Part shown: positions 4,581-25,479 of the stretch, one piece after another
Layout: each line of letters starts with the position of its first letter
Position numbering within the stretch: position 1 is the first letter of the stretch
Origin: Escherichia coli
GTDB lineage: Bacteria > Pseudomonadota > Gammaproteobacteria > Enterobacterales > Enterobacteriaceae
Strand: one strand, 5' to 3'
NCBI RefSeq assembly: GCF_016026235.1
Contig: NZ_CP065613.1
DNA length: 64,000 nt
Program-made: the position numbers and the translations under genes
The notes under the pieces: generated by a model
What the model was told of the DNA's origin: nothing
Databases searched by the model: none
Seen by the model: only the letters and a program-made list of their open reading frames with translations

Positions 4581-5144
4581 TTATTCATTGATCAGTTTCT
4601 GCGCCAGCGCAATGACATGATCTACCTCTTCCGGCGTCAGGCTGCCGTCCTTTGCCCACTGAATTTGCCCGGTTTTATTCAGCACCAGAATGGTTGAACT
4701 CTGCTCCGGCAAGCGCCAGGCAACGCGTCCCTGTCCATTGCCGTCAATAACGAATTGCGCCCACGGATAGCGGCGTTTATTTTTTTCGATTTTGCCAACG
4801 ACAAAATAGCCAGTACCAAAGATGGCATCATCAGTGTTCACAATGGTGGTGGGCTGAAAACGATCCTGTGGAAAGTTTGCCGCTTCAACCGCTTTAATTA
4901 ACAGTGAGTTCTTCTTCTTCGCTGACTTACGCCCGGCGATATACTGGATAATGCGGACTTTTCCCGCCAATTGTGTGCTGTTCCACTTTTGGTAGTGAAT
5001 TTCGTCGTCGCTATTCAGAAGCAGCTCGCCGCCTTCCTGAATATAAACAGGGGTAACCGTTTTGCCAGTGACGAAATTGTGTGCCTGCACACCCGGGGCT
5101 AAGAGCATGATAATCAGCGCAATAATCAAACGAGATGACATCAT
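4581..5144 (-). CDS. secreted/periplasmic protein of unknown function
   Basis: 187-aa ORF with an N-terminal signal-peptide-like segment (LIIALIIMLLAPGVQA). Confidence 0.5.
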   Translation of the reverse strand: MMSSRLIIALIIMLLAPGVQAHNFVTGKTVTPVYIQEGGELLLNSDDEIHYQKWNSTQLAGKVRIIQYIAGRKSAKKKNSLLIKAVEAANFPQDRFQPTTIVNTDDAIFGTGYFVVGKIEKNKRRYPWAQFVIDGNGQGRVAWRLPEQSSTILVLNKTGQIQWAKDGSLTPEEVDHVIALAQKLINE

Positions 5145-19094: not shown

Positions 19095-20070
19095 GATCGT
19101 CTCCTCCGTCGTGATGGTCGTTTTTGGTGTTGCGACGAACCAGCACGGTTAAGCCCGCCAGCACAGCCAGTGGTAGCATCATGCCTTTATACAGGGTGTG
19201 TTGAATATTTTCGGAACGCGCACCGGTAGAAAGATCGTCCAGTTTCGGCAGGTCGAGATTTTCATAAGGCACACCCGTCAGTACCAGAACCTGAGTACCG
19301 CCGCCCTCTTTCTCGCCGTACAGATGCGGATAATATTTCGGCACCGTATGCAGGTAAGTGTCGCCAGATTTCAGCGTCTGACGCGGATAGTGGTATTCGC
19401 TGCCAGGCTTCAGCGCCAGACGTTTTTTCGCCTCCGCCATCAGCTCTTCACGCGTACCAAAAATCACCGCGCCCGCCGGGCACACTTCTACGCAGCCAGG
19501 CAGACCGCCTTTATCGAGACGTTCCACACCTTTCTGGTTGCACAGCTCGCACTTATGTAGCGCACCAAACGGGTTGTTGTAGTCGTACTTCGGCACGTTG
19601 TACGGACAGGCGACCATGCAGTAACGGCAACCGGTGCACACGTCTTTGTCGTAATGGACAATGCCGGTTTTCGGATCTTTTTTCAGCGCAGAGACTGGGC
19701 ACACAGAGACACAGTTCGGATCGACGCAGTGCATACACTGTTTCTTAATGTACGCGTAGCCATTCTCCTCCTGGTCTTTGTTGACCCCTGTGCCGCTGGT
19801 CCACACCTGAATGATGTTATTGGTATACGGCGACAGTTTGTCGTTGTTCGACCAGGTCTGTTCCCCTTGCGGGTTACGTTCAGGGAAGTTGATATCCTGA
19901 CACTTGGTGACGCAAGCCTGGCAGCCTACGCACAAGGTCGAGTCGTACAACATCCCCAGCGATCCCGGAATTGGCGGGCGGTTTTCAGCAGCCGCATGAC
20001 TGACAGACGGCAGCGCGCCCGTCAGCAATGCCCCGCAGGAGGCTGCTTTAATAAAATTACGTCTGTTCAC
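19084..20070 (-). CDS. hybA: hydrogenase-2 Fe-S ferredoxin-type subunit
   Basis: 328 aa; Tat-type signal (RRNFIK); multiple CxxCxxCxxxCP clusters. Confidence 0.9.
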
Positions 20071-20072
20071 GG

Positions 20073-21191
20073 TTATTCTCCCCGTGAGTCAGCTTTATCT
20101 TTCTTTTGCTGACGACCCAGTTCACGCACCGCCATCACGCTGACACCGGCAACCAGCCCAACCACACCGCCGAGCAAACCAATAGCGCCTGCAGAGACGT
20201 TGCCGCCCTCTTTAGCGTTAACATCCGGTTTCTGTGAACGCGGAGTCTGATTTTCGACGTTGGCAAGCTGATGGATGCCTTTATGGAAGCCGATACCTTC
20301 TTCGTTACAGCCATAGCACGGGTGACCAATTGCCACCGGCCACACGCCGCCAACGTCGCAGAATTGCAGCGTTGAGCAGTTGCCGTAAGTTTCTGGCCCT
20401 TTACAGCCGAGGTGGTACAAGCACCAGCCTTCGCGGTGGCCTTCATCACCGAACTCTTTGGCAAAACGACCAGCATCGAAGTGCGGGCGACGTTCGCAGT
20501 GTTCGTGAATCAGACGGCCATAGGCGAAGGTCGGACGGTTTTTGTCATCCAGTTTCGGCGGTTTGCCGTAAGTGATGATGTGCGCAACGGTCGCGAGGAA
20601 GTTGTGCGGGTTCGGCGGGCAGCCCGGAATGTTGATAACGGTTTTGCCTGGCAGAACTTCTTGCAGGCTGACTGCGCCAGTTGGGTTAACTCCAGCTGCG
20701 GCAACACCGCCCCACGCAGAGCAGGAACCGATAGCGATAATGGCTGCTGCGCCTTCCGCCGCTTTGCGGATGTGATCCACAATCGGCTCACCGGCAACCA
20801 TGCAATAAATACCGTTATCTTTTAATGGGATGGAACCATCCACCACTAACACATACTGCCCTTTGTACTTCTCGAGAGCGTTATGTTTGTTCTCTTCGAC
20901 CTGATGACCGAAGGCGGCGGAAAGCACTTCGTGATACTCCAGAGAGATAGTCTCCAGCACGAGGTTTTCTACCGTTGGATGCGTTGCACGAAGCAGAGAT
21001 TCCGTACAACCGGTGCACTCCTGCGCGCCAATCCAGATAACTGGCGGACGCTGCGGGTTAGTAACCGATTCGGCCATCTCAGCAGCGGCTTTGCTACTTA
21101 ACCCCATGGTGGCGGCTAATGCTGCACAAAGCTTCATGAAATCACGACGGTTAATGCCGTGAGAATGGATGAGGGTGTTATCTCCAGTCAT
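20073..21191 (-). CDS. hybO: [NiFe] hydrogenase-2 small subunit
   Basis: 372 aa; Tat signal (RRDFMK); Fe-S cysteine pattern. Confidence 0.9.
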
Positions 21192-21379
21192 TTATAGTTA
21201 TTCCGTTGCGAAGACCTGGCATATATTTTGCCTCAATCGCAAAATCAATAATGCGATCGATGCGCCATTTACCACACATTTATTATGGTTATCGATATCA
21301 TGATACTGCGGCGGGGCGCTAAAACGAAGGGAAGAAGCATTAGTGTAATTAATTAAAGCAAGATAATACGTATGTTTGA

Positions 21380-21667
21380 TCAATTTTCGAGGCGATAACC
21401 GGCCATAAAAAAGCGCAACGTAGAACAGGAATTATTCTCACGAAAGAAATCCATTACCATCTCTTTATCCAGTCCATAGCGGCGCGTCAGAATACCCGCT
21501 TCCCAGGCGCTAAGCTGGCGATCTCCGGTCTTTTCGTACATCCGGTGTGAGTAGCCTAATACAAAACCGCGTTTATAATCGGCACAGAATTTTGTCACAT
21601 TAACCGCACTGTCGGCATGCGTTGCTTTTAATCCCGCCATTAAGCCTTTACCAAAATGGTTATTCAT
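21380..21667 (-). CDS. yghW: small protein of unknown function
   Basis: 95-aa ORF upstream of the hyb operon. Confidence 0.7.
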
Positions 21668-21785
21668 CGTTCACCTCATTCGCTATATATCGTCATATAT
21701 AGCGATATTTTAGGCAAAGAACGACTTTTGCGCACGCTATTTTTTCATGCTTGTTTAAGACGTAATCCCGTAAGAGATAAACCTA

Positions 21786-22673
21786 TCAGGAGAGATATTT
21801 ATCGAACCATTTCAGTGTCCTTTGCCAGGCAAGATCGGCGGCAGATTTGTCATAACGGGGCGTGGAATCATTATGGAATCCGTGATTAACCCCCGGATAG
21901 ATATACGCCTCATAAACCTTATTATTGGCTTTCAACGCCGCCTCGTAAGCAGGCCAGCCCTCGTTGATTCGGGTGTCCAGTTCCGCGAAGTGGAGTAGTA
22001 AAGGCGCTTCAATCTTCGCCACATCGGCAGTGGGTGCCTGGCGACCATAAAACGGCACCGCGCAGGCCAGTTCCGGATACGCGACAGCCGCCGCGTTCGA
22101 TACGCCACCGCCATAGCAAAATCCGGTAATACCCACTTTGCCTGTCGCTTGCGGATAGCGTTGCATAAACTCAATTGCGGCAAAGAAATCATTCATCAGT
22201 TTGGTTGGATCAACCTGCTGTTGCAGCTCACGACCTTTATCATCATTTCCCGGATAACCTCCAACGGAACTTAAGCCGTCAGGTGCCAGGGCGATATACC
22301 CCGCCTTCGCCACTCGCCGTGCCACATCTTCGATATACGGATTCAGTCCACGATTCTCATGCACCACCACCACGGCTGGCGTTTTGCCGCTCATTTTTGC
22401 GGGTTTCACCAGATAACCCCGTACCTCGCCGTGACCATTTGGCGAAGGATACGTGATGTACTCAGCAACAATCTCCGGGTCGGTAAACTCTACCTGAGTC
22501 GCCAGCGCATAATTTGGCTTGAGCAAATCAAACAACGCTAATGCCGTCATCCCGCCCACCGCATACTTCGCCGCAAGGTTGAGGAACTCACGTTTCGAGA
22601 TTTTCCCGTGAGCGTAATAGTCGTAGTAATCCAACAACTCTTGTGGGAAATCTTTGGCGGTTAAACGCGGCAT
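21786..22673 (-). CDS. yghX: dienelactone-hydrolase-family protein (apparently intact)
   Basis: uninterrupted ORF 21786-22718; probable start at MPRLTAKDF. Confidence 0.65.
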   Translation of the reverse strand: MPRLTAKDFPQELLDYYDYYAHGKISKREFLNLAAKYAVGGMTALALFDLLKPNYALATQVEFTDPEIVAEYITYPSPNGHGEVRGYLVKPAKMSGKTPAVVVVHENRGLNPYIEDVARRVAKAGYIALAPDGLSSVGGYPGNDDKGRELQQQVDPTKLMNDFFAAIEFMQRYPQATGKVGITGFCYGGGVSNAAAVAYPELACAVPFYGRQAPTADVAKIEAPLLLHFAELDTRINEGWPAYEAALKANNKVYEAYIYPGVNHGFHNDSTPRYDKSAADLAWQRTLKWFDKYLS

Positions 22674-22829
22674 CGTTGCACTCCTCAACTGGTGTTTTTT
22701 TAAGCAAAGCATAAGCACGTGTTTTCGCCCAGTTTTTCGTCACTCTGTGAGCCAGACTACGGGATACGCGCTGGCGAATCGCTAAACTAGAAACATTGTT
22801 TCGAAATTGAACGGTGGAAAGGAGAGGTC

Positions 22830-23870
22830 ATGGTCTGGTTAGCGAATCCCGAACGTTACGGGCAGATGCAATACCGCTATTGCGGAAAAAGCGGTTTACG
22901 CCTGCCCGCGTTATCGCTCGGTTTATGGCACAATTTCGGTCACATTAACGCGCTGAAATCACAGCGTGCGATCCTGCGTAAAGCGTTTGATTTGGGCATT
23001 ACGCACTTTGATTTAGCCAACAATTACGGGCCGCCTCCAGGAAGCGCAGAAGAGAACTTTGGTCGCCTGCTGCGGGAGGATTTTGCCGCTTATCGCGATG
23101 AACTGATTATCTCTACCAAGGCTGGCTACGATATGTGGCCCGGCCCTTACGGCTCTGGCGGTTCACGTAAATACCTGCTTGCCAGCCTCGACCAAAGCCT
23201 GAAGCGTATGGGGCTTGAGTATGTCGATATCTTTTACTCTCATCGCGTCGATGAAAATACGCCGATGGAAGAAACCGCCTCTGCGCTGGCTCATGCGGTA
23301 CAAAGCGGTAAGGCGCTGTATGTCGGGATCTCCTCTTACTCGCCAGAGCGGACGCAAAAAATGGTCGAGTTGCTGCACGAGTGGAAAATTCCGCTGTTAA
23401 TTCATCAACCTTCGTACAATTTACTAAACCGCTGGGTGGATAAAAGCGGCCTGCTGGATACCCTGCAAAATAACGGCGTGGGCTGCATTGCCTTTACTCC
23501 TCTGGCTCAGGGATTGCTGACCGGAAAATATCTCAACGGCATTCCTGAAGATTCACGGATGCATCGTGAAGGGAATAAAGTTCGTGGCCTGACGCCGAAA
23601 ATGCTCACCGAAGCCAACCTCAACAGCCTGCGCTTATTGAATAAAATGGCACAGCAGCGTGGACAATCAATGGCGCAAATGGCGTTAAGCTGGTTGCTGA
23701 AAGATGATCGCGTGACGTCGGTATTGATTGGTGCCAGCCGCGCGGAGCAACTTGAGGAGAACGTGCAGGCGCTGAATAATCTGACATTTAGCACCGAGGA
23801 GCTGGCGCAGATTGATCAGCATATCGCCGATGGCGAGCTGAATCTGTGGCAGGCGTCTTCCGATAAATGA
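22830..23870 (+). CDS. yghZ: aldo-keto reductase
   Basis: 346-aa AKR family protein. Confidence 0.85.
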   Translation: MVWLANPERYGQMQYRYCGKSGLRLPALSLGLWHNFGHINALKSQRAILRKAFDLGITHFDLANNYGPPPGSAEENFGRLLREDFAAYRDELIISTKAGYDMWPGPYGSGGSRKYLLASLDQSLKRMGLEYVDIFYSHRVDENTPMEETASALAHAVQSGKALYVGISSYSPERTQKMVELLHEWKIPLLIHQPSYNLLNRWVDKSGLLDTLQNNGVGCIAFTPLAQGLLTGKYLNGIPEDSRMHREGNKVRGLTPKMLTEANLNSLRLLNKMAQQRGQSMAQMALSWLLKDDRVTSVLIGASRAEQLEENVQALNNLTFSTEELAQIDQHIADGELNLWQASSDK

Positions 23871-23909
23871 CCTGTTAATTACGGGCGCGAGAACCGCGCC
23901 CGAATCAGA

Positions 23910-24473
<564 letters not shown>

Positions 24474-24594
24474 TCAACATATCCGTTAAACCTTTGTCGC
24501 ATAATTCTGAGGTTTAGGGATCTTCCTGGTTCCCTTATCAACGCATCGAGAGCGTCTACCCTTAAAGGACGTTGAACCTGAAGGGAGAAAAACG

Positions 24595-25479
24595 ATGTCT
24601 CATTTAAAAGACCCGACCACGCAGTATTACACTGGTGAATATCCCAAACAGAAACAACCGACGCCAGGCATCCAGGCGAAGATGACACCGGTACCGGATT
24701 GCGGCGAGAAAACCTATGTTGGTAGCGGTCGCCTGAAAGATCGTAAAGCACTGGTGACAGGGGGCGATTCCGGAATAGGTCGCGCTGCCGCCATCGCTTA
24801 CGCGCGTGAAGGGGCTGACGTGGCGATCAGTTATCTTCCCGTGGAAGAAGAAGACGCTCAGGATGTGAAAAAGATCATTGAAGAATGCGGTCGCAAAGCC
24901 GTTCTGCTGCCAGGCGATTTAAGCGATGAGAAGTTTGCCCGTTCGTTGGTTCACGAAGCGCATAAGGCGTTAGGCGGGCTGGATATTATGGCGCTGGTCG
25001 CCGGGAAACAGGTTGCCATTCCTGATATTGCAGACCTCACCAGCGAACAGTTTCAAAAGACCTTTGCCATTAACGTTTTCGCGCTGTTCTGGCTAACCCA
25101 GGAAGCGATCCCCCTGCTACCGAAAGGTGCAAGTATCATCACCACTTCGTCAATCCAGGCATACCAGCCAAGTCCGCATTTACTGGACTATGCGGCTACG
25201 AAGGCGGCGATTCTGAACTACAGCCGTGGCCTGGCAAAACAGGTCGCGGAGAAAGGTATTCGGGTGAATATTGTCGCGCCAGGCCCTATCTGGACGGCAC
25301 TACAAATTTCCGGCGGACAAACGCAGGATAAGATCCCGCAGTTTGGTCAGAAAACGCCGATGAAGCGTGCGGGGCAACCGGCGGAACTGGCCCCAGTATA
25401 TGTTTATCTGGCAAGTCAGGAGTCGAGCTACGTCACCGCAGAAGTGCACGGTGTGTGCGGCGGCGAGCATTTAGGTTAA
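24595..25479 (+). CDS. yghA: short-chain dehydrogenase/reductase
   Basis: 294 aa; GGDSGIGRA Rossmann motif. Confidence 0.85.

Follow-up and report, generated by a model that had tools for sequence, protein, structure and literature searches.

Intact yghX in a non-K-12 Escherichia coli: a predicted dienelactone-hydrolase-family enzyme with a cysteine nucleophile and a candidate Tat-type signal

The dienelactone hydrolase ClcD of Pseudomonas knackmussii (1DIN, 4U2B; carboxymethylenebutenolidase, EC 3.1.1.45) shares with the E. coli protein YghX its Pfam family, its fold and a Cys-Asp-His triad; the two proteins are about 25% identical, and YghX has an N-terminal extension that is absent from ClcD. 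ClcD is cytoplasmic and is encoded in a chlorocatechol operon, and its Arg81 and Arg206 bind the substrate carboxylate. The product of yghX itself was crystallised from O157:H7 (4ZV9) as a construct without the first 58–59 residues, with its function listed as uncharacterised; the purified O157 protein (“EcoDLH”) showed no detectable phosphotriesterase activity, and its active-site cysteine was modified or oxidised in the crystal (bioRxiv 10.1101/2025.10.30.685675). An older suggestion, drawn from the GxCxG motif, presented YghX as a putative cPHB polymerase (PMC3709699). In K-12 MG1655 the locus between yghW and gpr is annotated as a pseudogene, yghX (b4658), together with a 47-aa CDS, yqhI (b4755), and K-12 yghX appears in the literature almost always as a neutral pseudogene integration site (PMC7677707). 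The gene, a curated family model, the crystal structure and the annotation of the K-12 lesions are thus all on record already.

We examined yghX within a window of 64,000 nucleotides from an E. coli genome (the whole stretch analysed, from contig NZ_CP065613.1). The window very probably comes from a non-K-12 E. coli with an ordinary intact yghX allele, whose product would be a dienelactone-hydrolase-family enzyme preceded by a putative Tat-type signal. On one side of the gene lie yghW (21380..21667, minus strand) and, farther out, hybO; on the other side lie gpr (22830..23870, plus strand) and then yqhA. The arrangement hyb-yghW-yghX/gpr is the E. coli one, as found in the window, in MG1655 and in FDAARGOS_943. 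The last of these is the nearest genome (100.0% identity over 24 kb), with 4 SNPs from the window in 7.1 kb and none in yghX. The yghX region was found in 5425 of 5426 complete E. coli genomes. Coordinates of the features discussed are collected in Table 1.

Table 1. Features of the yghX locus, in coordinates of the 64,000-nucleotide window.
Feature	Position	Strand	Basis
yghX CDS, 295 aa + stop, YghX family hydrolase	21786..22673	-	ORF; NF041440; Pfam DLH and YqhI-like; PGAP
In-frame 15-codon upstream extension from GTG, probably untranslated	22674..22718	-	Contains GAGGAG; homologues start at ATG
Codons 1–58, “YqhI-like” segment and candidate Tat-type signal	22500..22673	-	PF23678 residues 1–36; alignments; hydrophobicity
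S-K-R-E-F-L, Lys-Arg variant of the twin-arginine motif, codons 26–31	22581..22598	-	Homologue alignments
Site of K-12 2-bp deletion (TA/AT in GTATG), codon Tyr37, gene 109–110; undeleted here	22564..22565	-	Alignment
Site of K-12 1-bp deletion (one C of CC), codon Thr157, gene 470; undeleted here	22204..22204	-	Alignment
Dienelactone-hydrolase-family alpha/beta-hydrolase domain, residues 84–294	21792..22424	-	PF01738; structural superposition
Cys186, predicted nucleophile in G-F-C-Y-G	22116..22118	-	ClcD position 123; Cys in 30/33
Asp233, predicted triad acid	21975..21977	-	ClcD Asp171; invariant, 33/33
His264, predicted triad base	21882..21884	-	ClcD His202; His in 30/33

The ORF listing of the window shows a single uninterrupted frame at 21786..22718 on the minus strand, 310 codons long when read from a GTG. 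By our estimate about 0.01 stop-free runs of 310 codons would be expected by chance per 64 kb, and the ORF was taken as real because homology to NF041440, Pfam DLH and PDB 4ZV9 settles the matter. The first-pass annotation had placed the gene at exactly these coordinates, without naming the strand, and its range of 295–310 aa spans both of the starts available in this frame (295 aa from ATG, 310 aa from GTG). Translation most likely begins at the internal ATG, 22673, and yields the 295-aa protein, because the Shine-Dalgarno sequence GAGGAG lies at 22681-22686, 7 nt upstream of it; because M[PT]RLTAKDF forms the N-terminus in all ten aligned enterobacterial sequences, window included; because PGAP calls an 888-bp CDS in FDAARGOS_943, with a yghX identical to that of the window; and because the equivalent ATG is the start of the 47-aa YqhI in K-12 (MG1655 annotation; also PMC6001520). 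That translation begins at GTG 22718, to give the 310-aa protein of the maximal ORF, is scarcely credible: the frame is open from that codon, but the ribosome-binding site falls within the extension, 7 nt ahead of the ATG; the additional 15 residues occur in 0 of 33 full-length distant representatives (36–67% identity, the set used for conservation throughout), and the ten enterobacterial sequences begin at the ATG, which is also the start used by PGAP and by the K-12 yqhI annotation. The GTG start was rejected in favour of ATG 22673.

K-12 and window yghX differ at 12 of 888 aligned positions (~98.6% identity). The first-pass annotation took K-12 to carry a frameshifted yghX and proposed an alignment against K-12 to locate the lesion; the alignment bears this out. 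The K-12 gene lacks 2 bp at codon 37 and 1 bp at codon 157, and both sites are undeleted in the window. Following the 2-bp deletion, the K-12 frame runs into a stop 11 codons on. The resulting reading, MPRL...AAK followed by CGRRDDGISVV, is YqhI exactly: of its 47 aa, 36 are the N-terminus of YghX and 11 are read out of frame. The last 138 codons of the K-12 gene are in frame again since the two deletions total 3 bp; stops are abundant between the deletions. As judged from the alignment, YqhI is the orphaned N-terminal start of the frameshifted yghX. The K-12 yqhI gene, at 4598-4741 of the MG1655 locus, corresponds to 22527-22673 of the window.

YqhI is listed with an exactly matching sequence in a small-protein table (PMC6001520), and it is described as a putative soluble protein and counted among small proteins induced at low Mg2+, with the peptide failing to complement the deletion phenotype (PMC11429745). 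The portions of the two papers available to us do not state that YqhI is a remnant of yghX. Studies of YqhI in K-12 should allow for its nature as a remnant, composed of 36 native and 11 out-of-frame residues.

The frequency of the K-12 lesions was assessed by exact matches to 81 bp of the K-12 allele around each deletion: 1247 of 5426 complete E. coli genomes matched at the 2-bp site and 1197 of 5426 at the 1-bp site, and these numbers are lower bounds (at least 22–23%). A sample of 40 evenly spaced genomes comprised 28 at full length, one of which carries an additional base that lies outside the CDS, 9 that are 3 bp short like K-12, 2 that are 2 bp short, and one that retained 17% of the query; PGAP treats both shortened classes (-3 and -2) as “frameshifted” and the remaining alleles as normal CDSs. 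The genome of H1827/12 (NZ_CP013031.1, 328-1213) has the 2-bp deletion and not the 1-bp deletion, and the first K-12 allele is matched by ~50 more genomes than the second. Because H1827/12 carries the 2-bp deletion alone, we infer that this deletion came first and that the 1-bp deletion followed later in the same lineage; in K-12 and its relatives the two events in this order would have left the first 36 codons alone in frame. The genome with 17% of the query is E. coli IAL7255 (NZ_CM130730.1), and its remnant carries the annotation “dienelactone hydrolase family protein”. In ten genomes in total the match spans less than 80% of the region, presumably through larger deletions or insertions that arose independently of the K-12 lesions.

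Intact yghX is the majority state of E. coli, found in about three quarters of the genomes. The 90% cluster of the intact protein has 5276 member sequences, and intact orthologues with 85–92% identity are present in Citrobacter, Enterobacter, Kosakonia, Leclercia and Pseudescherichia; the intact gene is evidently the ancestral state. We compared the window allele with that of CFT073 and counted 44 nucleotide differences, of which 38 were synonymous and 6 non-synonymous (Nei-Gojobori); dN/dS was 0.042 against CFT073 and 0.044 against PS_131_S11. The intact alleles are thus under strong purifying selection. It could be argued that the ORF is open here by chance, the gene being dispensable and decaying in the species with K-12 further along; about a quarter of complete genomes live with inactivating lesions, at least one genome (IAL7255) has lost most of yghX, and K-12 tolerates integration at the locus (PMC7677707). 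We consider this very unlikely, given a dN/dS of 0.04 for intact alleles with differences at 5% of their sites, the retention of the intact gene across the five genera named above, and lesions in K-12 that are two shared events and not many independent ones. The first-pass suggestion that this strain may retain the functional enzyme holds insofar as the ORF is intact, the predicted triad is kept and the gene is under purifying selection; it does not hold as a peculiarity of the strain, retention being the majority state of the species. At the yghX locus it is K-12 that is the exception; in E. coli the intact gene is normal and is maintained by selection. The finding of an intact copy is correct but ordinary, and of little importance overall.

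The family assignment was made from profile searches and from a structural model. The NCBIfam model NF041440 (“YghX family hydrolase”), which is also the family model of the O157:H7 protein, matched residues 3–294 of 295 with 587.3 bits against a cutoff of 460 (E=4.6e-177), and Pfam DLH (PF01738) was matched over positions 1–217 of its 217 with 164.8 bits against a gathering score of 21 (E=2.7e-48). The match to the O157:H7 structure 4ZV9, the product of the same gene, had E=2e-161 and 99% identity over residues 59–294, the difference being two or three amino acids (V69F, S135N). The AlphaFold2 model (overall pLDDT 96.9, pTM 0.93) was superposed by Foldseek on 4ZV9 with a target-normalised TM of 0.99 and an rmsd of 1.0 A, and on the ClcD structures with a target-normalised TM of 0.80–0.85. 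Catalytic residues were mapped by HMMER alignment to the ClcD variant 4U2C, using ClcD numbering. Together the alignments and the model show YghX as a predicted dienelactone-hydrolase-family alpha/beta-hydrolase with a full Cys186-Asp233-His264 triad. A check for catalytic residues, as the first-pass annotation had proposed, finds all of them retained in the window copy; the Ser-Asp-His triad named there was mistaken, the nucleophile in the ClcD alignment being Cys186, as in the classical dienelactone hydrolase, and a serine triad was rejected on this ground. With Cys186 activated by His264 and Asp233, YghX would hydrolyse an ester, thioester or lactone via a Cys-acyl intermediate.

Outside the triad, the likeness to ClcD is incomplete. 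ClcD Glu36 and Arg81 have equivalents in YghX, namely Glu106 (in HENRG; kept in 27/33 representatives) and Arg148; in contrast, the position of ClcD Arg206 is occupied by Asn268, with Asn in 27 of the 33. The ClcD-like pair of carboxylate-binding arginines is therefore reduced to R148; as the second arginine is gone, a dienelactone substrate should not be assumed, and the natural substrate of YghX need not be a dienelactone. The neighbours hyb, yghW, gpr and yqhA include none for aromatic degradation, a further difference from ClcD. No neighbour genes are shared around three distant homologues (P0122, P0126 and P0137), so the neighbourhood gives no clue to the substrate.

The N-terminus of the window protein reads MPRLTAKDFPQELLDYYDYYAHGKI-SKREFL-NLAAKYAVGGMTALALFDLL-KPNYALA, followed by TQ. 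In order, the segment has a helix ahead of the motif, then S-K-R-E-F-L, a stretch of weak hydrophobicity, and A-L-A at residues 56–58. Set against the twin-arginine consensus S/T-R-R-x-F-L-K, the window reads S-K-R-E-F-L-N, and S-K-R-E-F-L fits apart from Lys in place of the first Arg. All 10 sequences of the enterobacterial alignment, window included, have K-R-E-F-L. Among the 33 distant representatives R-R occurs in 28, with Arg at position 27 in 28, Arg at 28 in 30 and Phe at 30 in 29; Ala58 is kept in 25, and the stretch between the motif and A-x-A is Ala/Gly-rich and uncharged in these proteins. Pro/Ala-rich linkers of variable length follow A-x-A in some homologues, and one has a lipobox-like LTALGC. 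Following the motif in the window protein, the 19-residue Kyte-Doolittle maximum is 1.41, a weak hydrophobicity similar to that of the neighbouring HybO Tat signal (1.09). The alignment to the 4ZV9 chain starts only at YghX residue 59.

From these features Tat export, with the signal either cleaved or retained, is most likely the correct reading of the N-terminus. Residues 1 to about 58 would serve as a Tat-type export signal by which the folded enzyme would go to the periplasm and there be set free by cleavage after Ala58 or stay tethered; cleavage is the outcome towards which we lean. Substitution of Lys-Arg for the twin arginines slows Tat export without abolishing it, and Salmonella TtrB has a natural Lys-Arg Tat signal. 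Compared with such signals, the pre-motif segment of YghX is unusual in being 25 residues long, strongly conserved and confidently modelled. No report of YghX export was found in the literature; a search for “dienelactone hydrolase” with “twin-arginine” gave genome papers only. Studies of YghX function are best done in a strain whose yghX is intact, with attention to the periplasm and with Cys186 taken as the nucleophile.

Conservation of the N-terminal segment bears upon whether it would be discarded, retained in the membrane, or kept as part of a cytoplasmic enzyme. Identity among the enterobacterial sequences is 99% over residues 11–24 versus 87% over the mature part, and in the distant set 34–42% over the N-terminal segment versus 46% over the mature part; an extra conserved motif, LYDxYxH, lies ahead of RR/KR. 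AlphaFold2 models residues 1–58 as three helices (11–21, 27–37 and 44–51) with pLDDT 92–96. Such high conservation, confident helices and the LYDxYxH motif are unusual for a cleavable signal.

These same features may represent a permanent structural element, e.g., a helical lid or dimerisation arm of a cytoplasmic hydrolase, with the RRxFL likeness being coincidental or having another role. The modelled confidence (with pTM 0.93) is more like that of a docked structural element than of a disposable signal, and the segment, with its LYDxYxH motif, is conserved like the catalytic domain; the window protein has KR in place of RR and matched no Tat-signal profile at E≤0.1 (TIGR01409 and the Tat-signal Pfam families); and the K-12 fragment YqhI has been called a putative soluble protein (PMC11429745). 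We nonetheless regard a cytoplasmic structural element as unlikely, as most of the 33 representatives have RR-x-F-L, an Ala/Gly-rich uncharged stretch and A-x-A in that order, the variable Pro/Ala linkers and the lipobox-like L-T-A-L-G-C of homologues are features of exported proteins, and the catalytic domain was crystallised without the N-terminal segment. TIGR01409 was weakly matched by 7 of the 33 homologues (best E 0.004).

The signal could also be used by the Tat system and remain uncleaved, as a Rieske-like membrane anchor that would hold the hydrolase to the inner membrane on its periplasmic side. Rieske proteins of this type retain their signal; the corresponding family (“UCR_Fe-S_N TAT signal”, PF10399) was weakly matched by 4 of the 33 homologues, and high N-terminal conservation suits a retained part better than a discarded one. 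An anchor of this kind seems quite improbable for YghX, where the post-motif stretch LAAKYAVGGMTALALFDLL contains Lys36 and Asp49, where the mean Kyte-Doolittle value of 1.41 (19 residues) is lower than expected of a membrane helix, and where an A-x-A cleavage motif is present with its Ala58 kept in most representatives. Returning to export with the signal as the preferred reading, its conserved front part might be accommodated by a fuller scheme, which we offer only tentatively: YghX would be a periplasmic, Tat-exported Cys hydrolase with a Lys-Arg signal, its LYDxYxH helix would be docked on the enzyme, and YqhI would be the orphaned front half of the signal. A helix docked in this way might mask the active site or time the export.

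The region surrounding yghX was also scanned for control elements. Promoter and terminator matches over 21150-23000 were no more numerous than in shuffled sequence, with no sigma-70-like promoter directly upstream of yghX on the minus strand in the same scan, and no RNA family was found in 20000-25000 by an Rfam scan. The stretch that separates the yghX stop from the start of yghW contains a perfect inverted repeat, 21680-21705, with 11-bp arms (TCGCTATATAT-CGTC-ATATATAGCGA); its end lies 12 nt upstream of the start codon of yghW, the region folds on the minus strand with -18.6 kcal/mol, and K-12 has a counterpart with identical arms and one loop change. Possible roles of the repeat are an operator for yghW or a hairpin in its 5'-UTR. 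Further along the window, yghA (24595-25479) is intact and encodes 294 aa; in FDAARGOS_943 the same gene is flagged as a pseudogene with an internal stop, from a C to T change of Gln261 to stop at the SNP located at window position 25375.
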